Shown: positions 6,217 through 58,740 of the stretch, piece by piece
Numbering within the stretch: the first letter of the stretch is position 1
Layout of the letters: every line of letters starts with the position of its first letter
Origin: Candidatus Undinarchaeota archaeon
GTDB taxonomy: Archaea > SpSt-1190 > JASMDC01
Assembly: GCA_964519305.1 (NCBI GenBank)
Contig: CAZFHY010000010.1
Span: 32,001 to 96,000, forward strand
Length of the DNA stretch: 64,000 bases
Direction: 5' to 3'
The notes under the pieces: generated by a model
What the model saw: only the letters and a program-made list of their open reading frames with translations
Database searches by the model: none
What the model was told of the DNA's origin: nothing
Position numbers and translations under genes: made by a program

Positions 6217-9200
6217 ATGGTAAGGGGGTTCCTGAGCATCGGGAGGATGGCCGCGGCTCTAGCTGTAGCCGTGGCCTTACTCCTGTCCGGGATCCCGACG
6301 GTCGCTGCTGATGGTGACGAGAATCCCTGCGCAGGCCTCGACATTATGGCGGGCACCATGAACCTCCCCCACGGTGGCGGAACGGACCTCAACCACGTGG
6401 CGTTCTGCATCCCCGCGGGGACCGAGGGCGCGGCAGGCTGCGCCGACCATCTCAAGGACGAGTACGGTCTCGAGCCCGTGGAGGGGACCGATAACCAGTT
6501 CGAGTACACGGGCGAGGAGGAGCTGGACCCGGAGGCGGTCCTCGCTGAGCCCGGTGGCGAGCGAGGGCAACTCGTAATGTCCTCATCGGGCCTCGATGTG
6601 CGCATCAACGGTGCGCCCAGCATCACCGAGGACGGCATCCGCGCCTGGCTGTCGGAAAAGAACCCGGCGCTGCTGGAGGCCGATCCTGACCTCCCATTGA
6701 CGTTCTACGAGACGAGCATCGAGTATAACATCGATCCGGCCATCGCCCTATCCTTCTTCCAGATGGAGTCGAGCTACGGGAAGGCCGGTAGGGCCACCTC
6801 CACGCTCTCCATCGGCAACATCAGGGAGTATGGCGACGGTCCTGCCATCGACGGCTTCAGGGCCTACGACACGTGGTCCGACGGCGTGGAGGACTACTAC
6901 CAGCTCCTCTCCGGCGACGTCTACGTGTCCAGTGGGCTGACCACCGTCGAGCAGATCGTCCCGAAGTACGCGCCGGCGGCGGACAATAATGTGCCCACAC
7001 AGTACATAAACAGTGTACGCGCCACGGCCGAGGCGATCCAGCAGTACGAGGAGGTCATGGGCCCTGATGGCGGCATTTCCACCGGCAGTGGCGGCGGGGC
7101 GCGCGGCTGCTACCCCCACAGGCCCACACCACGACGGTTGCCCGACTGCCCGAAGATGGACAACTTCGACAACGTCGTAGACTACCTCACCGAGATCGAG
7201 GCCATGTTCGACGATATGCTCAAGTTCTACGAACCGCTGGTCAACGAGCTGAAGCACTTCAGGTCCGTGCTATTCGCCGAGCAGGCGAAATGTCACGGTG
7301 CCATCAACGACTTCGCCTCCCGCTACGGTGTTCCGTGCGAGATGGACGCGTTCAGCGCGTCCGAAGAGGGCGAAGAAGAAGAGAGTGAACCTGAGGCGGA
7401 AGAGGACGCTGGTGGCAGTGAAGCGGAGCCCGAGGAGGACACGTACGAGCCGAGCACGGGGATCGAGGGCGACCTGCACCCCGAGGAGGAGGTCACCCTG
7501 TCCGTCTACGGGCCCGAGGTAAGGGACGCCCATCCGCTGGAAGCGCTTGTCCTCAGCGATGGCTTCGGCCCGGCCCTGTGCGCCGCTGCCGTGAAGGACA
7601 ACTGCCTTGCCGACGACGCATGGCAGTGCCGGAAGGGCGAGGGCCACCTCCCCGCGGTCGTCGGGACTTGCAGCATGTGCGTGGCCGAGGGCTGCTGGGC
7701 CGGTACCGGGTGCGGCACGTGCGGCGAGGAGGACGACAGCGATGACAGCGAGGGTGAGAAGAAGCTCACACCAGTGTATACGGACGGGAGCTCAGGCACC
7801 TATCCACGATCTGAGGACGAGGCCCTCACCGGCGGCACGGACCCATTCGGTGTCAAGGAATGCAAGGGCGAAGGGCTGGCCGAGGGGGAGAGGACCTACG
7901 TAGTCATAGAGCGCGGGGTGCATGCGAACGTAGAGGCGCTCGAGCTCCAGCGATGCCAGCAGGCAGCGATCGACGTCAAGGACCTGTGCATGCTCGATGG
8001 TTCAGGCGACTTCCTGGGCGATGGCGGTGTCCACGGCCCCACCGATGTGCTCGTTGGACTTGACGACCTCATCAGGGACATCGAGTCGTTCGTTTTCGAC
8101 CTCGGTAAACTGACCGATGAGGTCCACAAGATGGCCGAGGAGACCAAGAAGGACCTGGACGGCAAGGACGCGATAAACTGGCCCACCGCAGGTTCCCAGA
8201 CATCTGGATACGGGCCTAGGGGCGCGCTATGTGCCGACGCGAACCTGTGCAAACCCCACTTCCACCACGGCCTCGACATCTCGCAGGCGGGCACGGTACC
8301 GGTCATCGCCGCGGCCGACGGCAAGGTCTCGGGCCTGGTCAAGGAGTCGTCAGGCAGCTGCTACGGCAACGCGGTGTTCCTGGACCATGGCAACAACCTC
8401 CAGACGCGGTACGGCCACCTCCGATCCCTCGAGGTGAGCATGAGCCAGGTGGTCGACCAGGGCCAGCGGATCGGGCTCCAGGGCAACACGGGCTGTTCGA
8501 CAGGGCAGCACCTGCACTTCGAGATACGGGTCAACGGCCAGTCCGTTGACCCGCTTGAAGTGCTCGAGGGCAAGAGCAACGTCTTCCTGCTCTTCCACGA
8601 GGCGGAGATCTTCTCGACCATGTCGAAGAACGCCGAGAACATCAAACCGACGCAGGAGGCGCTCAAGGCGTTCGTCACGTTCCTCCGCGAGTACACTAAT
8701 GACGTGTGCGGTGCGGGCGGGACGAGCGAGGGCGACGTGCCATCGTTCCTTGTGGGTGCGTCCGATGAATGGGCGAATGGCGAGAGTTGCGATGTATCCT
8801 TCCCACCGTTGTTCGATGGGGACGACTGCACCTCCACGCAGGACGCCGACACCGAGGAGGACCCGCCCGAGGAAGAGGAGGAGGAAGCAGGCACGAAACC
8901 GGAGGAGAGCGGCGAGCACCTGGACGACTGCCCTTCAGAGAAGCATCGTGGTGGGTGCATCGCTACGACCACGACCACCTCGGTCAGTGATTCGAACAGC
9001 GACGCGTTGGACGAATCGATCGAGATCCTGCTCTCACTCGCCGGCTGGTACCCGGACGAACTGTTCCTCGACGATGAAAAGTGCTTCGGGTACAACACAG
9101 AGGGCGGGAATCCTAGTGTGTCCGGATCCGCGTCACCCGGCGGCAGCCCAGATCCCGGCAGCGAGAGCTTCGGTACCGACGAGGGTGCGGAGGACGACCT

Positions 9201-12200
9201 GCTCCCCGGTCAGGACGCCGAGGAGGGTGACGACGATCCACTAGTCCAGTGCTGCCAGCGTCTCTTCAACACCGAGACCGTGACGGGGACAGGGGGCGCC
9301 ATCGCCTACACGGCGCACAGCTGGCTGGGCGTTGCATACGCGTTGGGCGGCTCCGACCGCGTCGGCGTCGACGGTCCAGGTCTCGTGCTGGGCGTCATGC
9401 GCGAGAACGGCTTCGAGCTCCCCCGGACGGCCGCGGCACAGCTGGGATCTTGCGAGCAGCTGGGCGGTATGCGGATCGCCTGGAACGTGCTCCGACCCGG
9501 CGATCTTGTATTCCTCAAGGACGATGGATCGACGGACGTGTCCCACACCGGAGTATTCGTGGGCGATGACCTCATCGTCAACGCACCGGGTCCCGAGGGC
9601 GTTGTGCGGCTTGACAAGCTGTCCACCTTGCGCCACCGGTGGTCAGGCGGATGTCGGATCGGTTCAAGCGCATCGTCAGATGCAATTGTCGTCAGCTGGT
9701 GCCAGGAGGAGGTAGATGAACTGTGCTGTCGCGGTCCCGGCCTCGAGCTCGAACTGGCCATCTCCGAGGAGGCCTGTGGTATGTCCTGCGACGAGCTGTG
9801 CGACAGGAAGCATACACGCCACACGGTAGCCCACACGCTCTGCCGTCATGCATGCGGTGCACGGGACGAGCAGTGCGACGGCAAGACCGACGAGAGCGCG
9901 TGCGAGGTCGATAGCGTCGAGGGCCTGTGCTGCGAGGAGAAGTGCATGGTTCACGCATTGATGTGCGCGTCTCGTGTCGAGGTCTGTATCGATATAAGAG
10001 ACGGGGAGCAGTGCTCCTTTGGTGGTGATGACGGTATTTGTTGCGGTGGTCGCTGCCTCACCGGCGGCGGTGCGTGCACGCCCTGCGCAGTGGGCCCGAC
10101 ATGGGCCAAGGACCCCGCGAACGGGGAGTGCGAGCAGTTCGAGAGCGTCTGCGACGTCCCGACGGGACGGACCGATTGTGGCCCCTGTTCCGAGGTGGAC
10201 GCATTCGGCAAGGACCCGGCGACCGGGAAGTGCGAGCGGTTCGACTCCCCATGCGACGTCCCCTACGGCTGGTCGGAGTGCGAGGGACACGGATGCGCAT
10301 CTCTTGACGACGGTGCCGTGTGCTCCATCGATGGCACGGCGGGCATCTGCTGCGGTGGCGGCTGCACTGTCGGGGCCACATCTTGCATGGACGATCCAAC
10401 CGTATGTACAGACGTGGGCGAGGGCGAGGCCTGTGCAACCGACTCAGCGGGCGTATGCTGCAACGAACGCTGCGCGGTAGGTGCCGTCGCGTGCGGCGAA
10501 TGCCCCCGGGCGGTCACCCATGCCTACGATCCATCGAGGGGCCAGTGCGTGCGATACGACACGCCGTGCGATGTACCCAAGGGATGGCCGCCTTGCATCG
10601 CGTCCTCCTGCCTCACTGAGTGCCAGAACGCCCACCCGTCCAACCCTGCCCTTGCCCATGCCTGCCGGGAGCAGTGCGAGGGCGCTGACATATCCTGCGA
10701 GGAGCGGTGCCTGGCGGCGAGCGACGACACGGACGAGCGCACCAGCTGCATCGGGCAGTGCTCGAACGACGTCACCAGCAGCATGCCCGAGACGCTCAGG
10801 TACTGCGAGACTGGCTGCCTTAGTGATGACGACGCCCAGACTGGCCTCTGCATGAGCATGTGCCGGGCGACGCATCCGCATGTGAACATCGAGCTCGCTA
10901 TCGTCAGGGGAGAGCAGGAGGCCTCGTCCCTGTTCACGGGCGAGCGACCACGCCTTCGCATCATCGCCGAGAACCGCGGTTCGCGTGAGTTCGCCGGGAG
11001 CATCGAGGCGGTGCTGCGCGAGTTGTCCGCCTGCACGTGCCCGGCCTGTCCGTCAGGGGATGTATGCCACTGCGGCTGCGACACAGGAGAGCGGCCCGTG
11101 GTGCGCTTCGACGACGTGATGCTCGGCGTCGGGAAGAAGACCACCTATCTCTCCGATCCGTTCATTCTACCCGCGACACTGGCAGGTACGACGCTGCAGC
11201 CGGCCGCGACCCTCCGGGATGCCAGTGGTAGGACCGTGGGAGCACCACGCGGTCCTTTCTACGGTGTGGCTGCACCGGGACCCGTCTCGATCGATGACGC
11301 CCAGTTCACCGTCGACGGGAGGGAGCGGGCCACCACCGCCGCCCCCGGAAGCACGGCAACGGCCTCGCTCATCCTCACCACCGCCCGCGCGCCCACCAGC
11401 GTCACGGTATCCGTGGTCACTGCTGTCGGCGTCCCGGTCGAGGGCACCGAACGCATCCACGAGCTTCCCTTCCCCGTCCAGAACAAAGCCCTTGCCACGG
11501 GCCCGCTGACCGTCACCAGCGCTCAAGCTGGATCGCTGTTCCGCATCAGTTACCGAATCGAGTCCGGTGGTGTCGAGCTGGCCGCTGGAGTGCTCGATGA
11601 GCAGGGCAGACCGCCCGGTATGTGCGACGGTCGGGAGCTCACCACTGAGTGCGAGCAACTCCACCTGCAGGCCCATCGTTCGTACCCCCACGCGTTCCTG
11701 GAGGTGCTCCGACCTAAACTCGTGGCGACCGACGCGTCGTTCATGGACGCGGACGGCCGCGAGGCCATACTTATGCCCGCTGGGAAGACAGTCCGGGCCA
11801 TGGTCGAACTGGCGAACCCGTCTGGACGTCCCTTCACAGGCACGGTGACCGTGTCTGTGACGCAGGAGGACGGCTCTACTGCCCTTGGTTCAGATCAGAC
11901 CATCGAGGTCGAGCGTGGGCTCGATGGATCGTTGTCACGGTCGTTCGAGACAGCGAGCTTCCAGACCACTGCAGGCCGTTCGTACCGCATCCGCGTCCTT
12001 GGGAAGGACCGCGACGGTGCGGTCTGGCTCGATGAGATCGTACAAACTGTCCTCTTCCCCATGGCCGGGCTCAACGTTCCGGAGAGCGCTGTCAGCGGCA
12101 TCAGCCGCAACGACGTGTTCACATCCGTTGACCACGAGGACTGCCGTGCCAAGGTAACCTGCGTGCAATGCCTCTCGACCTGCGAGCTGCGTGTCGAGCG

Positions 12201-12264
12201 GACGCGCTGCACCGTCACACCTTTTAACTGTGACTGCCATTGCACCATGGAGGCGATCTCATGA
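6217..12264 (+). CDS. Giant Cys-rich secreted protein, paralogue 2: GH73-like glucosaminidase + M23 peptidase + degenerate NlpC/P60
   Basis: Signal peptide (MAAALAVAVALLLSGIPTVAA). Glucosaminidase-like ~6610-7050 (IDPAIALSFFQMESSYG..GNIR..FRAYDTW..KYAP). M23 ~8176-8568 (HHGLD, YGN, YGHL, GNTGCSTGQHLHFE). NlpC/P60 ~9301-9660 with DGPG instead of DCSG. Confidence 0.9.
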   Translation: MVRGFLSIGRMAAALAVAVALLLSGIPTVAADGDENPCAGLDIMAGTMNLPHGGGTDLNHVAFCIPAGTEGAAGCADHLKDEYGLEPVEGTDNQFEYTGEEELDPEAVLAEPGGERGQLVMSSSGLDVRINGAPSITEDGIRAWLSEKNPALLEADPDLPLTFYETSIEYNIDPAIALSFFQMESSYGKAGRATSTLSIGNIREYGDGPAIDGFRAYDTWSDGVEDYYQLLSGDVYVSSGLTTVEQIVPKYAPAADNNVPTQYINSVRATAEAIQQYEEVMGPDGGISTGSGGGARGCYPHRPTPRRLPDCPKMDNFDNVVDYLTEIEAMFDDMLKFYEPLVNELKHFRSVLFAEQAKCHGAINDFASRYGVPCEMDAFSASEEGEEEESEPEAEEDAGGSEAEPEEDTYEPSTGIEGDLHPEEEVTLSVYGPEVRDAHPLEALVLSDGFGPALCAAAVKDNCLADDAWQCRKGEGHLPAVVGTCSMCVAEGCWAGTGCGTCGEEDDSDDSEGEKKLTPVYTDGSSGTYPRSEDEALTGGTDPFGVKECKGEGLAEGERTYVVIERGVHANVEALELQRCQQAAIDVKDLCMLDGSGDFLGDGGVHGPTDVLVGLDDLIRDIESFVFDLGKLTDEVHKMAEETKKDLDGKDAINWPTAGSQTSGYGPRGALCADANLCKPHFHHGLDISQAGTVPVIAAADGKVSGLVKESSGSCYGNAVFLDHGNNLQTRYGHLRSLEVSMSQVVDQGQRIGLQGNTGCSTGQHLHFEIRVNGQSVDPLEVLEGKSNVFLLFHEAEIFSTMSKNAENIKPTQEALKAFVTFLREYTNDVCGAGGTSEGDVPSFLVGASDEWANGESCDVSFPPLFDGDDCTSTQDADTEEDPPEEEEEEAGTKPEESGEHLDDCPSEKHRGGCIATTTTTSVSDSNSDALDESIEILLSLAGWYPDELFLDDEKCFGYNTEGGNPSVSGSASPGGSPDPGSESFGTDEGAEDDLLPGQDAEEGDDDPLVQCCQRLFNTETVTGTGGAIAYTAHSWLGVAYALGGSDRVGVDGPGLVLGVMRENGFELPRTAAAQLGSCEQLGGMRIAWNVLRPGDLVFLKDDGSTDVSHTGVFVGDDLIVNAPGPEGVVRLDKLSTLRHRWSGGCRIGSSASSDAIVVSWCQEEVDELCCRGPGLELELAISEEACGMSCDELCDRKHTRHTVAHTLCRHACGARDEQCDGKTDESACEVDSVEGLCCEEKCMVHALMCASRVEVCIDIRDGEQCSFGGDDGICCGGRCLTGGGACTPCAVGPTWAKDPANGECEQFESVCDVPTGRTDCGPCSEVDAFGKDPATGKCERFDSPCDVPYGWSECEGHGCASLDDGAVCSIDGTAGICCGGGCTVGATSCMDDPTVCTDVGEGEACATDSAGVCCNERCAVGAVACGECPRAVTHAYDPSRGQCVRYDTPCDVPKGWPPCIASSCLTECQNAHPSNPALAHACREQCEGADISCEERCLAASDDTDERTSCIGQCSNDVTSSMPETLRYCETGCLSDDDAQTGLCMSMCRATHPHVNIELAIVRGEQEASSLFTGERPRLRIIAENRGSREFAGSIEAVLRELSACTCPACPSGDVCHCGCDTGERPVVRFDDVMLGVGKKTTYLSDPFILPATLAGTTLQPAATLRDASGRTVGAPRGPFYGVAAPGPVSIDDAQFTVDGRERATTAAPGSTATASLILTTARAPTSVTVSVVTAVGVPVEGTERIHELPFPVQNKALATGPLTVTSAQAGSLFRISYRIESGGVELAAGVLDEQGRPPGMCDGRELTTECEQLHLQAHRSYPHAFLEVLRPKLVATDASFMDADGREAILMPAGKTVRAMVELANPSGRPFTGTVTVSVTQEDGSTALGSDQTIEVERGLDGSLSRSFETASFQTTAGRSYRIRVLGKDRDGAVWLDEIVQTVLFPMAGLNVPESAVSGISRNDVFTSVDHEDCRAKVTCVQCLSTCELRVERTRCTVTPFNCDCHCTMEAIS

Positions 12265-23264: not shown

Positions 23265-23378
23265 TGGGGCCACCGGGGTTCGAACCCGGGACACCCGGAT
23301 CTCAAATCCTTATCTTGGTATCGGAAGATCCAAGTCAGAACTTCAGTCCGGCGCTCTCCCAGACTGAGCTATGGCCCC
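23265..23378 (-). tRNA. tRNA-Phe(GAA) with 40-nt intron at canonical position 37/38 (intron 23301-23340)
   Basis: GGGGCCATAGCTCAGTCTGGGAGAGCGCCGGACTGAAG-[intron]-ATCCGGGTGTCCCGGGTTCGAACCCCGGTGGCCCCA; anticodon stem CCGGA/TCCGG; no encoded CCA. Confidence 0.95.
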
Positions 23379-26959: not shown

Positions 26960-28366
<1,407 letters not shown>

Positions 28367-48856: not shown

Positions 48857-51319
48857 CTAGGCGGTCGCCTCAGCGCCCTCAGGCGCTCCCTCGCTCGACG
48901 TCTCATCCTCTTTCTTCGTGATCTGGAAGTGGAAGAGAGACCTCGTCGACTGCCAGCGGATCCCGCTCTGCATCCCCTGGTACATGTTGAACGCCTCGGT
49001 CTGGTACTCGATGAACGGGTCCTTCTGAGCATAGGCCCTAAGGTGTACACCGCGCTTCATCTCATCCATACCCAGGAGGTGGTCCTTCCACGACATGTCA
49101 GCAGAGTGCAGAAGGACCTGTCGCTCCACCTGTCGGATGACATCCGTCCCTATCTCGGCCTCGCGTTCGTGGTAGCGTCGCATGGCCTCGTTCGTGAGGT
49201 TCTCGGTCAGCTCGTCAGCGTTCTTGACCGAGGCCACGTTGAGGTCGGCCACGTCGATGCCGAAGAGCGCCTGACAGTTATACGCGAACTGCTTCTGAAG
49301 GAACTCGTTCTCCCACTGGTGGGGCTTGGGGCCCTCGGCGGCGAACGATTCCACGACCTCCTCTGCCGTCCGCTCGATGACGTTGTACACGTCCTGCTGC
49401 AGGTCAGGCCGCTCGAGGATGACGTTGCGGTCCTCGTAGAAGATCTCCCGCTGCGTGTTCATGACCTCGTCGTACTTCAGCAGGTTCTTGCGCATCTCGA
49501 AGTGCATGCCCTCGACCTTGACTTGGGCTTGTCGGACGACCTTGTCGATGAGCTTGCCCGACAGCGGCTCGTCCTTGTGGGCGCCTGAGAAGTACTTCTC
49601 CATGTTCTCCGGTCCGTAGAACCGTAGAAGTTCGTCCTCAGCGGACAGGTAGAACCGGCAGGAACCAGGATCTCCCTGGCGACCCTCGCGTCCCAGGAGC
49701 TGGTCGTCGATGCGACGCGAGTCGTGGCGCTCGGTGCCGATGACATGGAGACCTCCGATGTCGGCCACGCCTTCTCCGAGCTTGATGTCGGTACCGCGAC
49801 CGGCCATGTTAGTGGCGACGGTCACTGCACCCTTCTGCCCGGCCCGGCCAATTATGTCGGCCTCCTGCTTATGGTGTTTGGCGTGGAGCACCTGGTGGTC
49901 GATGCCGCGGGCGATGAGCATATCGCTCAGGTGCTCGGACACATCGATGGAACGGGTGCCAACGAGCACGGGGCGGCCTGCCTCGTGCTGGGCCACGATG
50001 TCGTCAACGATCGCGTCGTACTTCTCCTCGGCTGTGCGGTACACCAGGTCGGGCTGGATGTCCCGCTGCATGGGCTCGTTCGTCGGTATCTGGGAGACGT
50101 CCATGCCATAGAGGGAGATGAACTCGCCCTCCTCGGTCTTTGCGGTCCCGGTCATGCCCGAGACGCGGTCGTACATCCGGAAGAAGTTGGGGAACGTGAT
50201 GGAAGCGTAGGTCTGGGAAGGCTCGCGGACCTTCATTTCGGTCTTCCCGGTGGCTAGAAGGTCGTTGTTGGCCTCTTTCGCCTCCAGGGCCTCGTGCAGC
50301 CCGGCCTCGTACCGCCTGCCGTGCATGAGGCGACCGGTGAACTCGTCGACGATTAGCAGCTCACCGTCCGAGACTACGTAGTTCTTGTCCTTTGTGAAGA
50401 GCGAGTGGGCGGCGATGCACTGGCGTGCCGAGTGGTAGAGATGCATGGTCCGCTCGTCCGTGGGCGAGTCCACCCCGAGGGCCTTGGCCAGCTTGTCATC
50501 CCCGCGCTCCGTGAAGAATACGATATGGTCCTTCTCGTGCACCTCATAGTCGCGCCCGGGTTCGAAGTCGCGGACGATACGGTCCATGATGAGGTACTCG
50601 CGGGCAGAGGTGCCCGTGCGTCCAGAGATGATGAGAGGAGTTCTCCCCTCGTCGATGAGGATGGAGTCGACCTCGTCGATGATAGCATAATGCATGCCCC
50701 GCATGACCCGGTCCTCGGGCCGGCGGACCATGTTGTCTTTGAGATGGTCGAATCCGAACTCGTTGTTCGTCCCGTAGGTGATGTCCGACTGGTATGCCGC
50801 CCTGCGGTCCTCGGGGGACTGGTCGTGCTGGATGGTACCGACGGACATCCCCATGAACTCGTAGACCGGAGCCATCTCCTCGGCGTCGCGACCGGCCAGA
50901 TAATCGTTGGCGGTGATGACGTGGACGCCCTTTCCTTCCAATGCATGGAGGTACCCGGAGAGGGTCGCCACCAGTGTCTTGCCCTCACCGGTCTGCATCT
51001 CGGCGATGCGGCCCTCGTGGAGGATCACGCCGCCCTTGACCTGGACGTCGTAATGGCGCATCCCGGTCACGCGGCTGCTCGCCTCGCGCACAGCAGCATA
51101 GGCCTCGGGCATGAGGTCGTCCAGGCTCTCGCCCTCCGCGTATCTATCCCGGAACTCGTTGGTCTTGCCTGCGAGCTCCTCGTCCGAGAGTGCCGCCATC
51201 TCGTCAGCGTAACCGTTGACCTCATCGACGATGTCGTCCAGACGCCGCTGCTCGCGATGGCTGTAGGAGAAGAAGGACTTCACGCCGTCGTAGAATCGAT
51301 CGAGCAACCCGTCCTCCAT
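48857..51319 (-). CDS. secA: Preprotein translocase ATPase SecA
   Basis: AEMQTGEGKTL, DYLAGRD, YGTNNEFGFD, IDEVDSILIDE, IVDEFTGR, GMTGTA, ATNMAGRGTDI, RRIDDQL.GR.GRQGDPGS, YAQKDP; no C-terminal Zn-binding motif. Confidence 0.98.
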   Translation of the reverse strand: MEDGLLDRFYDGVKSFFSYSHREQRRLDDIVDEVNGYADEMAALSDEELAGKTNEFRDRYAEGESLDDLMPEAYAAVREASSRVTGMRHYDVQVKGGVILHEGRIAEMQTGEGKTLVATLSGYLHALEGKGVHVITANDYLAGRDAEEMAPVYEFMGMSVGTIQHDQSPEDRRAAYQSDITYGTNNEFGFDHLKDNMVRRPEDRVMRGMHYAIIDEVDSILIDEGRTPLIISGRTGTSAREYLIMDRIVRDFEPGRDYEVHEKDHIVFFTERGDDKLAKALGVDSPTDERTMHLYHSARQCIAAHSLFTKDKNYVVSDGELLIVDEFTGRLMHGRRYEAGLHEALEAKEANNDLLATGKTEMKVREPSQTYASITFPNFFRMYDRVSGMTGTAKTEEGEFISLYGMDVSQIPTNEPMQRDIQPDLVYRTAEEKYDAIVDDIVAQHEAGRPVLVGTRSIDVSEHLSDMLIARGIDHQVLHAKHHKQEADIIGRAGQKGAVTVATNMAGRGTDIKLGEGVADIGGLHVIGTERHDSRRIDDQLLGREGRQGDPGSCRFYLSAEDELLRFYGPENMEKYFSGAHKDEPLSGKLIDKVVRQAQVKVEGMHFEMRKNLLKYDEVMNTQREIFYEDRNVILERPDLQQDVYNVIERTAEEVVESFAAEGPKPHQWENEFLQKQFAYNCQALFGIDVADLNVASVKNADELTENLTNEAMRRYHEREAEIGTDVIRQVERQVLLHSADMSWKDHLLGMDEMKRGVHLRAYAQKDPFIEYQTEAFNMYQGMQSGIRWQSTRSLFHFQITKKEDETSSEGAPEGAEATA

Positions 51320-51345
51320 CAAGTTGGCCTCGGCCCCGTACGGCC

Positions 51346-51353
51346 TTAATAAA
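51346..51353 (-). promoter_or_regulatory. Archaeal BRE/TATA promoter of secA
   Basis: AGAAACC-TTTATTAA on the minus strand, ~27 nt upstream of ATG 51319. Confidence 0.7.
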
Positions 51354-51394
51354 GGTTTCTCTGCGGGGGACTGGAAAACGGCATACGTAGGTCC

Positions 51395-52018
51395 TCACCC
51401 CCCCAGAATCGGCTGGACGTCCGACACCTTATCGAACGCGTACCCACCATCCTCGGGGCCCCAGACCTGTTCGTCTCGCTCGTTGTAACCCCGGTCCCAG
51501 GCGTACATCCCGCTCTCGTCGATGACAAGCTCGGTCGTGGCGTACACGGCCCCGCCATAGCTGTTCTCGCACTCCTTGCCCCGGGTACCACCCACGAAGG
51601 CGTCGTTCTCCCGGTGGAGGTAGACGACGTTCCCGCGGAAGCCCTCCAGGTCATCGGTTGTGAGGTCGCGGGCCAGCCTACCGTCCTCCCATGTGCCGAC
51701 GAGCTCCTCGCCGTCCCGGATGCGGTAGATGTGGCTCTCGAGGGTACCGTCATCACCGGAAGTCAGCCGGTACGCCCGCTGACGGTAGGGGGAGCCCTCC
51801 ATTCCGGCCATGGCCTGCTCGACGTAGACCCAGTGGTCACTGTCGCTACCACCCTCTACCTCGATGGGGAGCATCTTGAGGCGGATGTCGTAGTAGCTGG
51901 GGTCCTTTTCGGACTGTCGCTGGCTGGAGAACTCGCCCGTCATCCACGCATGGAGCGTGTCGAGGTCGTTCCTCCCTTCGTTCACTTCAGGCACCATGGT
52001 CCCGATATTCCGTGCCAC
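51395..52018 (-). CDS. CpcT/CpeT chromophore-lyase-like protein
   Basis: WMTGEFSS..Q; WVYVEQA; PYRQR.Y; WDRGY..QVWG...GGYAF. Confidence 0.85.
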   Translation of the reverse strand: MARNIGTMVPEVNEGRNDLDTLHAWMTGEFSSQRQSEKDPSYYDIRLKMLPIEVEGGSDSDHWVYVEQAMAGMEGSPYRQRAYRLTSGDDGTLESHIYRIRDGEELVGTWEDGRLARDLTTDDLEGFRGNVVYLHRENDAFVGGTRGKECENSYGGAVYATTELVIDESGMYAWDRGYNERDEQVWGPEDGGYAFDKVSDVQPILGG

Positions 52019-52022
52019 TCGA

Positions 52023-52397
52023 TCAGAACCTTATCCTGAAGAGCGGGACCGCATGCGGGGCCCGGGGGTCGCTGTCCCACCTGTAGACTTCCAGGTCCAC
52101 GCCGGGCGACTCGCCCCTAGTGATATCGAGGTCCACTCCGATGCCCTCTTGTGGCATGTTGTCCATGTCGATCGTCTCGAGGTCGCTGGCATACACCGGG
52201 GCCTCGGCCTTCTCGACATAGGTGTTCGTCTCTTGCGTCATTACGCTCCCGGCCATGGCACCGACGCCCACCAGGAGACCGGCCGCAAGAGCACCTCCGG
52301 CCAGACCGTAGGTGGAAAGGTCGTCTGCCGCAGTATATCCGTCGGCCATCACCGCCGAGGCGGTTCCGGTCGTCTCAAGTTCTTCCATGTACATCAT
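52023..52397 (-). CDS. Hypothetical protein, ELE(T/S)xG-leader family
   Basis: SD GGAGTGA; acidic leader, Gly/Ala TM segment, ends VPLFRIRF. Confidence 0.7.
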   Translation of the reverse strand: MMYMEELETTGTASAVMADGYTAADDLSTYGLAGGALAAGLLVGVGAMAGSVMTQETNTYVEKAEAPVYASDLETIDMDNMPQEGIGVDLDITRGESPGVDLEVYRWDSDPRAPHAVPLFRIRF

Positions 52398-52440
52398 GAT
52401 CACTCCTTTCAGTTCTTACAGTATGATATCGTTCGCGGCC

Positions 52441-52980
52441 TCATCGGATACGGAAGTCGAATCCGGGGATACGGATCCGGATGTCAACATCGCTCTGCTC
52501 GTAGGAGGGGTGGCTGTCAGGGGCCAAAGGGTCCGAACCGAACCCGAGCTCGTCCATGTCGGTGTAGCCGTCGTGATCGGTGTCGAACCAGTTCGGGTCC
52601 GTACCGAGCTCCATGACCTCAACACGGTCACTGATGCCGTCAGCGTCGGAGTCCCATTCCAACGTGCTCGTCCTGTACACACTGAGCTCCTTCGAGTCAG
52701 CGAGGCCGTCGTTGTCCGCGTCGGGTACGCCCCGGGCGTAGTCCATGCTGTCGATGAGCCCATCGCCGTCAGTGTCGGCGCTGAAGGGGTTGTTCCCGGT
52801 GACGATATCCTTGGCGGTCGAGTAGCCATCCTTGTCGAAGTCTACCGCGAGCACACCCGTGAGGGCGCCCACGGCTCCCAGGAGGGCGAGCCCCCGACCG
52901 TCCATATCGTCCGTGCTGCTGTATGCGTCGGCGGCCGATGCGCCGTAGCTTCCGTTCGTCTCAAGCTCGTATGCGATCAT
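52441..52980 (-). CDS. Hypothetical protein, ELE(T/S)xG-leader family, with DxDxDG Ca-binding (thrombospondin-3-like) repeats
   Basis: DFDKDG, DTDGDG, DADNDG, DSDADG, DTDHDG each followed by xxDxxE-like residues; TATAAAAA upstream. Confidence 0.8.
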   Translation of the reverse strand: MIAYELETNGSYGASAADAYSSTDDMDGRGLALLGAVGALTGVLAVDFDKDGYSTAKDIVTGNNPFSADTDGDGLIDSMDYARGVPDADNDGLADSKELSVYRTSTLEWDSDADGISDRVEVMELGTDPNWFDTDHDGYTDMDELGFGSDPLAPDSHPSYEQSDVDIRIRIPGFDFRIR

Positions 52981-53026
52981 GTCCGGCCCTGCCCCTTGTC
53001 CCCTTTTTATACCTTTCTTTGGTATA

Positions 53027-53058
53027 CCTAATATATTGGGACTGCCTAATATATAGGG
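53027..53058. promoter_or_regulatory. Tandem quasi-palindromic operator CCTAATATAT(T/A)GGG x2
   Basis: 53027-53040 and 53045-53058, 13/14 identical, just upstream of the TATA of the 52980 gene. Confidence 0.6.
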
Positions 53059-53130
53059 CTCTGAGCACAGCTTACCGACATACACAGTAATGTTAGGGGA
53101 TACGAATACATGCAGAGCCGATGAACGGCA

Positions 53131-54102
53131 TCATGCGTCTTCGGAGAGGGCCCAGCACCGGTCGAAGTACTCGATGAGCACCGGGATCAGAACGTTGCCT
53201 GTGGAGCTATGCCACCAGGGAGCGTCGTCGCCAAGCTCCACATCGATGAACGGCAGGCCCTCGGCCTTGAAGGCCAGATCCCGAACACGCCCTTCGGCCA
53301 TCGAATCGCCTGAGATCACCAGCTCACCATCCCCCCATGAGACAGATGCCCGCTTGACGGGGAAGTCGATCTCAATGAAGGGGAGCACCGGACGCTTCTC
53401 CGCGATGTAATAGGTCGCCGAGGCGGGCTCGTGGATTTCGTTGTCGTATTTCACGTCGAATACCTCGGTCACCCTGCCCTTCGGCCCGCGATACAGGAAC
53501 GACATGGACATGTGCGAGTCGCCATCCCGATCCCTGAATAAGTGATGGAACTCGTGGACCGTGAAGGAACCCTTGGTATAGCTGGTCGCCCGTAGGGGGA
53601 CCGCTGGGTGATTCACCAGGTTCTGGACTAGGGGTACACCCAGAGCAGGATGGCGCTCAAGGCCTCGTGCCACTTTCTCCGGATCACGGAGCCGCCAGCG
53701 CGCATAGGATGGCTGGGCGGCGTGCCGCAGCTTGAATGTGACGTCGTAACCATATATCCCATCGGTCTCGTCGTCCACGGCGACCAGATAGTGATGATAG
53801 GGCGATGGGAACACGGTGCGCTCCTCGACCAGATATGCGTTCTCGATGCCCGCGGCCTTGGCGAGCGAGAGCCAGACCAGGGATTGCTCAAGGCAGTTCC
53901 CCTCGCCTTGGGCAACGCACTCTTCCACTGAGCGGAGCCGGTACGGATCATCTGTCTTCAGCAGCTCCTCGTAGCCGTATTGGACGTTCTCCAAGACCCA
54001 GTCGTAGATGATATCTGCCTTCTCCCCATCGTCCATGTCCTGTGTAACAAGGGATTCGATGATTGGTTTGACTGACTCGGGATCCAGGTACTGTCCGTCC
54101 AA
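53131..54102 (-). CDS. Transglutaminase-like cysteine protease domain protein
   Basis: IYDWV.ENVQY; GEGNCLEQS..L.KAAGI; HHY; YDVT (Cys-His-Asp). Confidence 0.8.
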   Translation of the reverse strand: MDGQYLDPESVKPIIESLVTQDMDDGEKADIIYDWVLENVQYGYEELLKTDDPYRLRSVEECVAQGEGNCLEQSLVWLSLAKAAGIENAYLVEERTVFPSPYHHYLVAVDDETDGIYGYDVTFKLRHAAQPSYARWRLRDPEKVARGLERHPALGVPLVQNLVNHPAVPLRATSYTKGSFTVHEFHHLFRDRDGDSHMSMSFLYRGPKGRVTEVFDVKYDNEIHEPASATYYIAEKRPVLPFIEIDFPVKRASVSWGDGELVISGDSMAEGRVRDLAFKAEGLPFIDVELGDDAPWWHSSTGNVLIPVLIEYFDRCWALSEDA

Positions 54103-54259
54103 GGCGGTCTTAAAAATTTAGGCGTGCTTAATAATATTCCCTTTGGACACGTCGACTGTGTTCTGGTGCTCAAGGAAAAGTTTAAGTATGCCTAACTTAG
54201 GTGGCCCTAACTCAAACCGCAAGGAACGCGGACCGGATGATTATCGAAGGTGATCTGAA

Positions 54260-54715
54260 ATGTTCGAAATGGAACTCGAGTCGGAAGGGTACGGTGCTAC
54301 CAACACCACGCAGGCCTATGGACAGGTGGATGACCTGAACCTCAGGGGTGCCGCCGTGGGTGCAGCTATCGGGGGTGCCGTCGGATTTGGCATGGCAGGC
54401 CTCGCCGGTTACGGCCTGGCAAACCACATCAGTGATCACTATCTTCAGGACGTCGGCCCTCTGCCGCAAGTGCTCCTTGAGGTGGACGCTACCATCGCCG
54501 GCCTCTACGTGCTCGGCGTGCCATTCGCTATCGGTGGCGCGCTGACCGCTGGTGCAGCCGGTGCTACCTCCACCCTATTCAGGGGCGAGGAGGAGGCACC
54601 TAACGATGGTGCGGCCTACGACTGGAACGGTGAGCAGGACCTCGACCGTGTCCCCCTCCGGCGCCAGGTACGGTACACGTATCCTCGCAGAGACGCGAAC
54701 GAACTGGACTGGTAA
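54260..54715 (+). CDS. Hypothetical membrane protein, ELE(T/S)xG-leader family
   Basis: SD AGGTGA; acidic leader; two Gly-zipper hydrophobic helices. Confidence 0.7.
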   Translation: MFEMELESEGYGATNTTQAYGQVDDLNLRGAAVGAAIGGAVGFGMAGLAGYGLANHISDHYLQDVGPLPQVLLEVDATIAGLYVLGVPFAIGGALTAGAAGATSTLFRGEEEAPNDGAAYDWNGEQDLDRVPLRRQVRYTYPRRDANELDW

Positions 54716-54725
54716 CGGGATACCT

Positions 54726-56279
54726 GTGTACGAGCCCGAAGGGGACGGACAGTTGGAGGAGAGGCCTGAGGACGGAGAGAATCCGGTCGGGCAAGTCCTT
54801 ACCTACCAGAACCCTATCGACTATACGGTCACACATGACCTATTATCGCAGGATCCCGCATACTGTATGATGACGTTCGAGATGTATCGGCCCCTGTCGG
54901 ACGCGCTGGGCTTCCCGATCGCCAGCGATATGACACTCAGTGCCACGTACCATCCTGATCCATATGATCCGCCCCCGGGACAATCCCTTACTTTCGACCG
55001 CGTCACCCTCGCTAAGAAGCCTGGGGCCGCATGGCTCACCCCTGTGGACCTGGACGGTGACGGGTACGACGAACTGGTGCTCTCCACCCTCTTCGAAGGG
55101 CTCGCAGTGGCCATCCCCCCTATCGGGAACGGAGGGGCGTACATACTCTCAAGAGATGGCGGAGCATCGACGGACGACTCCATCGGCCAGTGGTCGGTCG
55201 ATCCGCTCTTCACGCCCAAGGACGGGATCGGCTTCCCGAACAGTCCGGTCCTCATGGATGTGGACAACGACGGTGTGGAGGACATAGTGGTCCCGTGCGG
55301 TTTCCTCCTAAAACCAACCGGTCGGATCGTGTGGATGAAGGGCGAACCGGTCGACGGTCAGCTCACCTACGGCCCACCACAGGACATCCCCATCCCGGAC
55401 AGCTCCCGCTGGTACCATGCCATCGTACCGGCGGACCTCACCGGCAATGGCCGTATGGACTTCGTCACCACCAACCACGACGGAACGCTCCTATCCCCGG
55501 GCACCAGCAAGGTGGAATGGTTCGAGAACGTGGGCGGTCCTGGTGAGGCCAGGTTCGTCCACCACCATATCGCGGATAGGGGCGGATCCCACCTTGCCCT
55601 CTACGATATGACCGGTAATGGTAAACAGGACATCATCCTCCCCCAATACTTCGATGGCCCGTCGCTCATATGGCTCGAACAGCCCGATACTCCCGACAGT
55701 GACTGGAAGGAGCACGTCATCAACGACACCACCGGTAGAGGATTCGGGATCGAGGTCGTCGATATCGATGGTGACGGTAGACCGGAACTTGTCTACGGCA
55801 ACCACAACCACCAAGGTGCAGCCGATCCCGCTCACCGGACCATGGGTGTGTACTGGTTCGATATCCCCGCCCCCTCCGAGGTCCGCGACCTCAATAACTG
55901 GGACGACCATATGCATGTAGTCCATGAGGGTTTCCATGTCCGTGCCCGGGATCCCAATGCCAACGCCGCTCCAGGGGTCGTGCACGTGGGGGACGTCACC
56001 GGGAACGGTAGGATGGACATCACCGTGTCAGGTGACGGGGACGACGGGCTTTACATATTCACACAGCAGGACGACGGCACTTTCGAGAAGGTTGTTGTCG
56101 ATCGTCAGCCCATGTCCGGCGACCATCACCTGATGGACGTCAACGGGGATGGACGGATGGACGTGGTATGGACCGTGTTCGGGGAGGTCGGCCTCCGCGG
56201 CCCGCGTTCAATGGTGTACGCCTACATCCAGAAAGAGAACGGACAAGCAGACAATGAAAAGAGTAGTGACAAGGAGTGA
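54726..56279 (+). CDS. FG-GAP/VCBS repeat beta-propeller protein
   Basis: Seven DxxGxGxxD(L/I/F/V)-type repeats (DLDGDGYDEL, DVDNDGVEDI, DLTGNGRMDF...); GTG start inferred. Confidence 0.88.
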   Translation: MYEPEGDGQLEERPEDGENPVGQVLTYQNPIDYTVTHDLLSQDPAYCMMTFEMYRPLSDALGFPIASDMTLSATYHPDPYDPPPGQSLTFDRVTLAKKPGAAWLTPVDLDGDGYDELVLSTLFEGLAVAIPPIGNGGAYILSRDGGASTDDSIGQWSVDPLFTPKDGIGFPNSPVLMDVDNDGVEDIVVPCGFLLKPTGRIVWMKGEPVDGQLTYGPPQDIPIPDSSRWYHAIVPADLTGNGRMDFVTTNHDGTLLSPGTSKVEWFENVGGPGEARFVHHHIADRGGSHLALYDMTGNGKQDIILPQYFDGPSLIWLEQPDTPDSDWKEHVINDTTGRGFGIEVVDIDGDGRPELVYGNHNHQGAADPAHRTMGVYWFDIPAPSEVRDLNNWDDHMHVVHEGFHVRARDPNANAAPGVVHVGDVTGNGRMDITVSGDGDDGLYIFTQQDDGTFEKVVVDRQPMSGDHHLMDVNGDGRMDVVWTVFGEVGLRGPRSMVYAYIQKENGQADNEKSSDKE

Positions 56280-56282
56280 TAC

Positions 56283-57044
56283 ATGATGGAGACCGAAGAC
56301 ATGCTCACTAATGATACGAAAAAGACCGGGATTGACACACAAACGGTGTTGGGGGACCCTCGGGCGGCCAGGTTCGTGGAGGACCTTGTGCTGTACTCGA
56401 AGCACACGTTAGATCCATCATTGCTCGAGTTGGATGGAGGTTCGCGATCAGCAGAGGGCCTCCCGCCGGTCAACGAGAGCAACATCGTAGAGCTCATCGA
56501 GTTCTACCGCATGGACCCAGAGCGGGTTAACGGTTTCTTCGAATCCCTGTACGAGGCCCATGAGGGCGATCCGGATGCCCGGGGTTACCTCCACGCTGCG
56601 TACGGCATCGTGGGCGGGAAGGCCGGGCAGGTCGACCGGATAGAGATGCGGTACAAGGAAGGGGTTGAACAGCTGCTCCGTCAGTATGACAGCGAGCTCA
56701 CCGAGATCATCGACTGGATGGACAACATGGACAGCAGGAGCCCCTATCTCGGCCTGCTGACCGGTGTTAGCGCGAGCACTGTGTTCGGGTACATCACCGA
56801 TCATGGAGCGGGAGTGACCGCTGCCGTTGCCGCAGGTCTGGCCCTTGGAGGAACGCTCCTGGGATACATGATCCCCCACGCTTGGGGCAACCACCGCATA
56901 GCTGTCGGCTGGAAGCGCATCACGTCAGAGACCGAGCGAATCGACGGACAGTTCTGCGAGCGAAGAGAAGAGCTCTACGAGCGTGCCGTAGAGAACATCG
57001 GTCAACTCCGGGGCGAGTACGACCTCGAAGAGATTATCTGCTGA
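56283..57044 (+). CDS. Hypothetical helical protein with central TM hairpin
   Basis: SD GGAGTGA; two hydrophobic segments flanked by charged helices. Confidence 0.7.
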   Translation: MMETEDMLTNDTKKTGIDTQTVLGDPRAARFVEDLVLYSKHTLDPSLLELDGGSRSAEGLPPVNESNIVELIEFYRMDPERVNGFFESLYEAHEGDPDARGYLHAAYGIVGGKAGQVDRIEMRYKEGVEQLLRQYDSELTEIIDWMDNMDSRSPYLGLLTGVSASTVFGYITDHGAGVTAAVAAGLALGGTLLGYMIPHAWGNHRIAVGWKRITSETERIDGQFCERREELYERAVENIGQLRGEYDLEEIIC

Positions 57045-57050
57045 GCCGGC

Positions 57051-57854
57051 CTAGATGCCATCCCCTCTCTCGGCCTCCTTCAGCTTCTTGAAGTAGGTCC
57101 AGCTCGTCTCGTTGGGCGTTGTGAAGGTGTCAGGTGCGTGCTCGAACTTCGGCGCCTGTGCGCGCACTTCGTCCTTTATGCGCTGTGGGAGGTCCTCGAA
57201 GCCACATTCCAGCTTGTGGCCCCGACAGTGGTACACCAGCTGTCCTGGCCGATCGCCCATGCCCATCCAGGGCAGCCACTGTCCCGTCCGCGTCCAGCTG
57301 AACGTCATGGGTACGCTGTCCAAGTCATCGTTCTCCAGCTCGTCCTTTCGCACGATGAAGTTGAACAGCTCGGCCGACTCGTACATGTCGCTCTGGGCGT
57401 TGTCAGGGTACTCGTCGCGGGTGAGGGGCGAGGGATAGCGGAGGAACATCTCCGCATGCCAGGCGACGTCATCCCCCAGGTCTGTGGTGGGCACCTTGAA
57501 GTAGGTCTCTCCAAACTCCATGTTCACGGGATCGTTCCACACATGGACCACGTCCTCCCGCCGGCCGGTGTAGGGATTGCTCCACGTATCAAGGAGCTCA
57601 TCGGTGTGCGGATCGTAGTAGAAGGACACCTCGCGGGTGAGCAGCTGGTAGACGCCGTTCACCTTCTCGACGCGGGCGATGTTGTACCCCTCGAAGTGGA
57701 AGAGACGATCGGCTGTCATGTCAGGACGCTTGGCATAGACCTCACCCGACCAGTAGGTGACGACCTCGCTGCCGTCGAGAGATGCCCGTGTGCGCAGGAA
57801 GTCGTGGAGGTTCCCTGCTGAACCCTCAAGGTCATAGTGGTCCATCGCGTCCAT
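57051..57854 (-). CDS. DUF1838 family protein
   Basis: YWSGEVY; LF.FEGYN; REVSFYYDP.T.E.L..W.NPYTG; NDPVN; W.R...WLPWM.MGDRPG. Confidence 0.85.
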   Translation of the reverse strand: MDAMDHYDLEGSAGNLHDFLRTRASLDGSEVVTYWSGEVYAKRPDMTADRLFHFEGYNIARVEKVNGVYQLLTREVSFYYDPHTDELLDTWSNPYTGRREDVVHVWNDPVNMEFGETYFKVPTTDLGDDVAWHAEMFLRYPSPLTRDEYPDNAQSDMYESAELFNFIVRKDELENDDLDSVPMTFSWTRTGQWLPWMGMGDRPGQLVYHCRGHKLECGFEDLPQRIKDEVRAQAPKFEHAPDTFTTPNETSWTYFKKLKEAERGDGI

Positions 57855-57855
57855 C

Positions 57856-58671
57856 TCAGAGCAGTTCCTCGAGCGTTCGCGGCATGTCGTTCAGGAGGTC
57901 GTCCATACTGATGCTCTCCCAGGTCACCCGCTCGGCCACGTAGCCGTAACCGATGCCGTAAGCGTGGTACGACGCGTTCAGGGCCGTTGCGACCGCATCC
58001 ATATCGATCACACCACTGGCCAGCGTCTCGCGTGCGGCCATAAGCTCTCGCACCGCAGGACGTCGATCCCGCTCGCCCCATGCCAGACGCTCCTCGAAGG
58101 CAGTTTCGGCGAACTCGGCCCCTGCGGGTAGCTCCGTGGCGCGCGCCCGGAACATGTTGGTCGCCATGTACTCTGCCTGCCCCTCAAGTGCGGCGAGGAC
58201 AGGTACAGCATCGATGAGGGAGCGGATGTAGTCGCCATGGGTCTCGTCCCGTTGCCGGGCCAGCTCCTTCTGGAGCCCCGCGCCGATGAGCGCGCCGTGG
58301 TTCGCCTGGTAGGCATGGACGAGCTCGTGAGCGAGCACGTACACCAGCTCGCCATCCTGCTCAGGATCAGTGAGGTCCGGTGTTACGACACGGTCCGATA
58401 TGAGCACCCGGTGGTTCAGGTCGTCGTACATACCTTTGTTGCCATGGTAATGTACCGCGGCGTCATGGATGGTCGCCTCATCGGCCTCTACACCCAGGTG
58501 ATCGCAGATATCACGGGCCAATCCTTCATACACGGCAACATCGGCGATGACCACTTCCGGTAGCGGGCCGAAAGCGATCCCGAACTCATCCTCGTAAGCG
58601 GTGACTATGTCATCCATAAGCGAATCGTAGGCATCCACGACAGGACGCCCGTCCCTTTCAATGTCGTACAT
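57856..58671 (-). CDS. Zincin-like metallopeptidase
   Basis: AHELVHAYQ ... LEGQAEY (gluzincin-like) ... YGIGYGYV. Confidence 0.8.
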   Translation of the reverse strand: MYDIERDGRPVVDAYDSLMDDIVTAYEDEFGIAFGPLPEVVIADVAVYEGLARDICDHLGVEADEATIHDAAVHYHGNKGMYDDLNHRVLISDRVVTPDLTDPEQDGELVYVLAHELVHAYQANHGALIGAGLQKELARQRDETHGDYIRSLIDAVPVLAALEGQAEYMATNMFRARATELPAGAEFAETAFEERLAWGERDRRPAVRELMAARETLASGVIDMDAVATALNASYHAYGIGYGYVAERVTWESISMDDLLNDMPRTLEELL

Positions 58672-58740
58672 GTCGCAGGTAAATTTAGGCTTACCTTATA
58701 TTCGTTACTATTCTGTACAAGAATCGCTCCGGAAGATCCC

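Follow-up and report, generated by a model that had tools for sequence, protein, structure and literature searches.

Three Leader-Bearing Genes next to secA

We analyzed a 64,000-nucleotide (nt) stretch of DNA from a Candidatus Undinarchaeota archaeon (SpSt-1190; GenBank assembly GCA_964519305.1, contig CAZFHY010000010.1, positions 32,001 to 96,000 of the forward strand), referred to here as the window, with a focus on three genes close to secA whose predicted products all begin with a strongly acidic leader followed by a Gly/Ala-rich hydrophobic helix. The genome under study (G000) comprises 3.63 Mb in 42 contigs, at 99.83% completeness and 4.29% contamination, and is considered together with the 3.8 Mb genome of a sister species (G001). 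The three genes, with their leaders and helices, lie at the following window positions:

52023..52397, minus strand: 124-residue family member, with its ATG at 52397, an acidic leader, a Gly/Ala-rich helix and a short acidic tail running to ..FRIRF
52317..52397, minus strand: leader of the 124-residue protein, residues 1–27 (MMYMEELETTG..ADGYTAADDL), net charge −6
52233..52316, minus strand: uncharged Gly/Ala-rich hydrophobic stretch of the 124-residue protein, residues 28–55
52441..52980, minus strand: 179-residue family member, with leader, helix, bacterial-type TSP3 calcium-binding repeats and C-terminal ..FDFRIR
52903..52980, minus strand: leader of the 179-residue protein, residues 1–26, net charge −5
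52843..52893, minus strand: hydrophobic helix of the 179-residue protein, residues 30–46, GLALLGAVGALTGVLAV
54260..54715, plus strand: 151-residue family member, with leader, two Gly-rich hydrophobic segments and an Arg-containing C-tail
54260..54337, plus strand: leader of the 151-residue protein, residues 1–26, net charge −6
54347..54433, plus strand: first Gly/Ala-rich hydrophobic stretch of the 151-residue protein, residues 30–58

Alignment of the three N-termini gives invariant M, E-L-E, G, Y, D-D and G/A positions, and the initial annotation, which had described a common acidic leader and Gly/Ala helix on these proteins, was correct in this as well as in its reading frames, coordinates and quoted N-termini. 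All three proteins are matched by the profile of the module described below (E = 1.2e-11 for the 124-residue protein); a Shine–Dalgarno (SD)-like GGAGTG precedes the ATG at 52397, and a TATA-like GGTATAAAAAG stands ~30 nt before the ATG at 52980. The 124-residue protein could not be assigned to any Pfam or NCBIfam family, while the repeats of the 179-residue protein match PF18884 (TSP3_bac, 2.4e-8), and the 151-residue protein is a paralogue of G000:C9:62990. The annotation had further held that the downstream parts differ entirely, which stands insofar as those of the 124- and 179-residue proteins have no BLAST link at E ≤ 1e-3, but goes too far in that both also contain a TSP3-like stretch, VYR..WDSD, and the C-terminal ..FRIR(F).

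As a separate observation, a second terminal motif, with alternating hydrophobic and Arg residues and a hairpin-like character, ends four family members (IRIRIPGFDFRIR, VRIGLPVLRINIR, IIRLPGLRFTFR and ..VPLFRIRF). Its sites lie at window positions 52023–52060 and 52441–52480 and in the two TSP3 proteins of contig C12 (G000:C12:69367 and 70087), and the motif also occurs in two homologues from the protein library searched below.

A Genome-Wide Family of N-Terminal Modules

A regular-expression scan of the six-frame translation of G000 recovers six copies of the motif, and a hidden Markov model (HMM) seeded with six genome copies, and iterated four times on the six-frame translation of the whole genome, converges on 33 open reading frames (ORFs), the worst of which scores E = 4.8e-7 while the next match lies at E = 0.31. 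The best match in a reversed-sequence control has E = 1.3. The E-values of a trained HMM are inflated, and thus partly circular, for its own training sequences; the first round from the six seeds already yielded 24 ORFs. With 33 ORFs and a clear score gap, the motif is significant genome-wide, and the module noticed initially on three proteins only is real, but belongs to a family of 33.

In all 33 members, the module sits at the N-terminus of the ORF, its motif beginning no more than a few residues from an in-frame start codon (ATG in 29 cases, GTG in three and TTG in one), with an SD-like sequence upstream in 15 members (against an 11% background) and a TATA-like box in 12 (against 1.8%). 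The consensus, M-[YFIM]-D-[ML]-[DE]-L-[ED]-[TS]-x-G-Y-x5-A-x-G-Y-x2-[TS]-D-D-L, comes from an alignment of 32 members, with G000:C20:57411 omitted for a masked stretch, and the core from [DE]L to DDL is 22 residues long and free of indels in 32 of the 33 copies. Core copies have, on average, 39% amino acid identity and 52% nucleotide identity, and use the same codon for 42% of their identical residues; this codon divergence and low nucleotide identity indicate that conservation acts on the peptide and that the copies are old, rather than the products of recent DNA copying. No Pfam (E ≤ 0.01) or NCBIfam model covers the module (residues 1–50) in the 32 members that these scans took in, which is also the scope of the family-wide Pfam and NCBIfam results below, and the ESM Atlas gave no usable match for residues 1–50 or for the whole of the 151-residue protein.

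The proteins that carry the module are otherwise diverse. Once the first 52 residues are removed, the 33 sequences fall into 20 groups without a BLAST link at E ≤ 1e-3, such that the members are not full-length paralogues. Downstream domains named by Pfam or NCBIfam in some members are bacterial TSP3 repeats and transglutaminase-core/BTLCP domains, one member of the latter type having a sub-threshold LapG-like match; further downstream parts include a LOR/scramblase-like domain, long helical repeats and a DUF4347 match below the Pfam threshold. Thirteen members are longer than 150 residues, and the family includes many 200–560-residue proteins with enzyme or repeat domains.

We also considered that plain paralogy or composition might account for the family, that is, that acidic N-termini and Gly/Ala helices are simply common in this organism. 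Five tandem clostripain-family (Peptidase_C11) genes at G000:C10:110490-117932, the array running 10 nt into the start of a TSP3/BTLCP gene that bears the leader, speak for this, as three to four of their products have an acidic N-tail and a Gly/Ala-rich helix of their own, different from the module; a looser version of the same style therefore exists outside the family. This array next to the leader gene is at least partly kept in G001 (L040). For the family itself, however, position-specific conservation, the fixed spacing, the gap in score and the unrelated downstream sequences led us to set aside a compositional artifact or plain paralogy as extremely improbable, and in a crude genome-wide survey most first hydrophobic segments are preceded by a net charge of −1 to +3.

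Anatomy of the Module

The acidic tail, predicted to be disordered, is ~27 residues long (25–31 residues up to DDL), with almost no basic residues and a net charge of −5 to −9 in all 33 members. It is followed by a linker of 0–11 residues, containing at least one Lys or Arg in 20 of the 33, and then, in every member, by an uncharged Gly/Ala-rich stretch of 15–31 residues. This helix is 44% Gly + Ala (23% Gly), compared to 20% (6% Gly) in 892 other first hydrophobic segments of the genome, a set picked by a hydrophobicity cutoff and biased against Gly, and it contains about four small-xxx-small motifs, compared to about one in other first hydrophobic segments. ORF calling, transmembrane segment detection and charge counts were performed with simple in-house scripts, rather than a trained predictor. 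An AlphaFold2 prediction on the 48-residue module alignment gives a coil for residues 1–24, with a predicted local distance difference test (pLDDT) score of 57–59, and a helix for residues 25–47 that starts at DDL; as the mean pLDDT of 61 denotes low confidence, we use only the coil/helix split, which is as expected for a linear motif beside a membrane helix.

Comparison with Known Signal Types

Measured against a Sec-type signal, the module has the hydrophobic h-region or membrane helix in all 33 members but, with the net charges given above, the basic n-region in none. Ala-x-Ala-like strings follow some of the helices (for example, ..VLAEEANAQ and ..AATAEP) and may or may not represent signal peptidase I sites, which have small residues at −3 and −1. 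A Tat-type Arg-Arg pair occurs in the linker of a single member (G000:C10:128663, 'DRR'). Archaeal class III signals resemble the module in that diverse surface proteins carry a cytoplasmic N-terminal segment ahead of a hydrophobic helix, but the module has no conserved [KR]-[GA] site (Arg-Gly or Arg-Ala stands right before the helix in 4 of the 33), and it is long and acidic where the class III example in the window combines a short, basic leader with a strongly hydrophobic helix. This example is a 468-residue protein (26960–28366, plus strand) with a textbook archaeal class III (prepilin-like) signal and a Laminin_G_3 domain.

Among the 33 members there is one clear lipobox-like site, LAGC in G000:C8:136306, which is kept as LSGC in a homologue; we give it reduced weight as evidence of topology, as one or two such sites among 33 Gly/Ala-rich helices may be due to chance. 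The signal peptidase LspA (Peptidase_A8) was not found in the G000 genome, and archaea may use other enzymes than LspA for lipoproteins. A caspase-like site, 'LETD|G', was rejected because, by eye, its would-be P1 residue is not conserved.

The initial annotation had offered, as one option, a bacteriocin-like leader or the leader of a ribosomally synthesized and post-translationally modified peptide (RiPP). Such a leader would be removed on export of Gly-rich, membrane-active peptides. Many members, of 63–136 residues, do consist of an acidic leader followed by a Gly/Ala-rich hydrophobic peptide, as is the case for the double-glycine leaders of class II bacteriocins and microcins such as colicin V, and the family lies partly in the variable genome. 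Double-glycine systems, however, combine a Gly-Gly site with a C39-peptidase ABC exporter, and we found neither: the 32-sequence alignment has no conserved Gly-Gly column or other cleavage motif after DDL, and C39 peptidase (PF03412) has no match in the 99.83%-complete G000 genome, while control genomes matched. In addition, no NCBIfam RiPP leader model matched and no modification enzyme recurs nearby, and the members longer than 150 residues, many of them large multidomain proteins, carry enzyme or repeat domains. We consider this reading very improbable.

Substrates of accessory Sec (SecA2/SecY2) also have a long N-region with a conserved motif and a Gly-rich core, and go together with an unusual or extra SecA. 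Their bacterial KxYKxGKxW motif is basic, however, and the system includes a second SecY and Asp proteins, whereas the module is acidic, no NCBIfam family matched its N-terminus in the 32 members, and G000 has a single SecY match and two secA genes, one of them on an 8-kb contig. The extended signal peptide region (ESPR) of autotransporters and two-partner secretion proteins is likewise a conserved N-terminal extension before a Sec-type hydrophobic segment on diverse passengers, but is basic/aromatic and proteobacterial, with no Pfam match in the 32 members.

The C-terminal sorting signals (LPXTG/sortase, PEP-CTERM/exosortase, PGF-CTERM/archaeosortase A and GlyGly-CTERM/rhombosortase) are, like the module, short motifs that abut a membrane helix and occur in tens of copies on unrelated proteins of a restricted lineage. 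The likeness is one of logic only, as these signals are C-terminal, with a basic end cluster and a cognate enzyme, whereas all 33 members bear the module at the N-terminus, where it is acidic and starts at Met1, and no enzyme recurs among their neighbors.

SecA and Its Neighborhood

The genes surrounding the three leader genes are as follows (window positions):

48857..51322, minus strand: complete bacterial-type secA, with four SecA Pfam domains and an NCBIfam PRK12904 match of 1000.7 bits (cutoff 814)
51395..52018, minus strand: CpeT/CpcT-like gene (DUF1001, E = 1.6e-40), between secA and the gene for the 124-residue protein
53131..54102: transglutaminase-like gene without the leader
~54720..56279: FG-GAP protein gene
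51323..58740: 7.4-kb block with the three leader genes, the CpeT-like, transglutaminase-like, FG-GAP and DUF1838 genes, and three unnamed genes

The products encoded in the 7.4-kb block include a 253-residue unknown protein and a 271-residue protein. The CpeT-like gene, which belongs to a phycobilin lyase family and is found here in a non-photosynthetic archaeon, follows a leader gene after 4 nt and precedes secA by 72 nt. At the other end, the reading frame of the FG-GAP protein overlaps the end of the gene for the 151-residue protein by 164 nt (54552–54715) in a different frame, and the FG-GAP protein has no recognizable N-terminal signal or helix of its own.

According to a 2026 review, archaea have no SecA homologue (PMC13673990), and a literature search on Undinarchaeota together with SecA returned no paper. 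The SecA encoded in the window is 92% identical to that of Candidatus Undinarchaeales archaeon isolate ETNP3_MAG_31, and its closest non-archaeal matches are bacterial SecA proteins, at 40–52% identity. G000 has a second secA (G000:C36:3068-5542, 63% identical, on an 8-kb contig), which might derive from a co-binned relative, whereas G001 has one. Two further genomes of the phylum gave weak, helicase-like matches, which were rejected as not being SecA.

The block is absent from between secA and the gene for a 609-residue protein in G001, where the gene order is M14 peptidase, 622-residue protein, secA, 609-residue protein and 976-residue protein, with 76 nt between secA and the 609-residue gene. 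The named relative L043 has the same order on the upstream side of its secA (genes for 951- and 609-residue proteins, then secA), from which we conclude that the 7.4 kb in G000 represents an insertion or deletion difference; this points to variable-genome content. Of the block genes, we searched only the CpeT-like gene and that of the 151-residue protein across the whole of G001: the former was not found with this query, and the best match of the latter is a 33%-identical paralogue. The neighboring 609-residue, 976-residue and M14 proteins have ordinary basic signal peptides. Taken together with the class III signal described above, such basic signal peptides in the same window indicate that the module is an addition to, and not the general style of, this organism.

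This setting raises the possibility that SecA itself reads the module, binding the acidic tail or the Gly-rich helix and driving post-translational export of the very acidic member proteins through the archaeal SecY. A complete SecA is encoded 700 nt from the nearest member, two members seem to be co-oriented in an array with the CpeT-like gene and secA, and SecA (E ≤ 1e-30) and the module each occur in the same two of 301 sampled archaeal genomes, namely, G000 and G001; the pairing of a long conserved N-region with a Gly-rich core is also known from Gram-positive accessory-Sec substrates. However, as the co-occurrence concerns a single lineage, it counts as a single event, and the adjacency is not conserved in G001 or L043. 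With ~20 independent family loci, the chance of finding one within 4 kb of secA is ~0.04, which is modest, one SecY was found, and G001 has 27 members with its one secA; moreover, SecA prefers basic n-regions. A complex prediction for SecA (9-row alignment) with the 48-residue leader-helix alignment gave a score of 0.00, run without control complexes, and counts neither way. The initial annotation had implied a tie of the leader proteins to secA; we regard this link between module and secA as weak, and a SecA-read module as quite unlikely.

Distribution and Genomic Setting

Copies of the module number 33 in G000 and 27 in G001, several of the latter being syntenic with G000 members (five matched members have 78–94% protein identity). 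The module is found in none of the 15 other genomes of the phylum, and in none of the other 299 of the 301 sampled archaeal genomes. Searching its profile against 1.84 billion representative proteins gave 34 matches at E ≤ 1e-3, of which we inspected 17, noting that at such a database size a 47-position profile would miss weaker relatives. The module is at the very N-terminus in 30 of these matches, in one case 17 residues in, behind an apparently mis-called start, and the other four are internal-repeat proteins that we regard as false. Scans of metagenome contigs with the CpeT-like protein and with the 124-residue protein found no relatives, and we found no description of the motif in the literature searched, in which a query on negatively charged n-regions of archaeal signal peptides returned general reviews only, and none of the papers listed used that phrase. 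So far, the module is known from a single uncultivated genus.

Two more members of the family are encoded on a 4-kb contig (G000:C37:1-4188), along with a paralogue of the M14 peptidase found near secA on C10. Together with C36, which bears the second secA, this contig may belong to a second, more divergent genome with both secA and the module.

The organism, an uncultivated marine archaeon, is itself atypical of its phylum, which is represented in the reference set by 17 species, 15 of them with genomes of 0.6–1.2 Mb and the exceptions being G000 and G001. A paper on DPANN metagenome-assembled genomes (MAGs) from oxygen-deficient zones assigns MAGs of ~4 Mb to SpSt-1190, as possibly free-living exceptions (PMC10936187). 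An archaeal small-subunit rRNA (1508 bits across the full model) lies on G000 contig C14, which also bears three family members. Elsewhere in the window, a 2015-residue protein (6217–12264, plus strand) has a canonical basic signal peptide with Peptidase_M23 and NlpC/P60 domains, which are peptidoglycan-hydrolase domains, here in an archaeon, and a 114-nt match to the 71-position Rfam tRNA model at 23265–23378 (minus strand), missed by ARAGORN, is probably an intron-containing archaeal tRNA. Eight public DNA sequencing runs from two studies contain the stretch and may be where it came from, and no RNA run was listed.

Topology and Proposed Role

TSP3_bac repeats and transglutaminase/BTLCP/LapG-like proteases work outside the cell, and in 20 of the 33 members Lys or Arg stands just before the helix. 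On these grounds, we consider it likely that the proteins have their N-terminus inside and their C-terminal part outside the cell. In the opposite arrangement, the acidic tail would be translocated, as in YidC/Oxa1-type insertion driven by the membrane potential, and displayed outside, for example, to bind cations or the cell wall, with the C-terminal parts remaining inside. Such an arrangement would suit a tail with this charge and so few basic residues, the length of which is within the range for Sec-independent N-tail translocation, and the helical repeats and LOR/scramblase-like parts could be cytoplasmic. The extracytoplasmic nature of the TSP3 and BTLCP/LapG-like parts and the position of the Lys/Arg residues nevertheless argue against it, as does the LAGC/LSGC site at the end of one helix, with the caveat that this single case could be due to chance, and we judge this reversed topology to be distinctly improbable.

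With the N-terminus inside, the reading that we tentatively prefer, with a little less than even confidence, is that the ~50 N-terminal residues form a sorting or targeting label, specific to this lineage, for signal-anchor (possibly cleaved-signal) proteins, which would be read by one partner. We favor this reading because a short terminal signature with a helix is found on tens of unrelated proteins, is restricted to a lineage, and is conserved while the downstream sequence differs. Known cases of short signatures beside a membrane helix that recur across dozens of unrelated paralogues within a single lineage have to date proved to be sorting signals, as for LPXTG, PEP-CTERM, PGF-CTERM and GlyGly-CTERM. 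The putative new targeting or processing signal proposed in the initial annotation is the best-fitting reading of a module that occurs on 20 BLAST-unrelated downstream groups and in 33 and 27 copies, always with the helix.

In mechanistic terms, the helix would insert through the single SecY channel such that the N-terminus remains cytoplasmic and the C-terminal part is exposed outside, and the acidic tail would be held at the cytoplasmic face as a short linear motif recognized by a single shared partner. Through this partner, the orientation would be set without the usual positive charges, and the whole set would be routed, localized or processed together; an additional intramembrane contact shared by the members may come from the Gly/Ala "zipper" helix. 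A hypothetical candidate for the partner is the horizontally acquired SecA.

Several observations weigh against a sorting label of this kind. The analysis turned up neither a partner nor a cleavage site or processing enzyme for the module, and no gene recurs beside the members: an all-against-all BLAST of 291 neighboring ORFs, with Pfam searches on 62, revealed local paralogue arrays and housekeeping genes only. About half of the members are proteins of 63–136 residues with one or two Gly-rich helices and without an exported domain. Application of the positive-inside rule is ambiguous, as the Lys/Arg residues number 25 in the linkers and 38 over the 12 positions that follow the helix, and the strongly acidic 27-residue tail could instead be translocated. 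We note that, with the module in two genomes only, phylogenetic profiling is without power.

An alternative is a non-export role for the module as a common membrane anchor and docking piece: packing of the zipper helices, among themselves or against a scaffold, together with binding of the tails to a partner in the cytoplasm or associated with the envelope, would bring ectodomains of diverse kinds and small subunits together in a single surface complex. The abundance of small-xxx-small motifs in the Gly/Ala-rich helix fits this role, as do the many small members with one or two helices, often in tandem, and the fixed length of the tail, which suggests a defined bound conformation, but no scaffold gene recurs beside the members. 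Docking appears unlikely, and is not separable from the sorting-label reading with the present data.

Implications

There are few kinds of protein sorting signal, and the recognition of each new one has led to dedicated machinery. In genomic terms, the module looks like such a signal, yet it departs from the main N-terminal rule, that of a basic n-region, and it sits in an archaeal lineage with a complete SecA, contrary to what the review cited above states. Its reach is limited to one uncultivated genus, and the sorting function is a prediction. If SecA does read the module, which we consider doubtful, an archaeon with an acquired bacterial SecA would have gained, by evolution or co-acquisition, SecA substrates of a dedicated class, defined by an acidic tag and a Gly-rich signal-anchor; this would be the first SecA-dependent export route in Archaea, with a signal charge opposite to that of every known Sec signal. 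More generally, should the tag be read by a defined partner, it would provide a handle on how the large-genome relatives of DPANN build their surface, as well as a natural test of how membrane proteins are oriented without positive charges.

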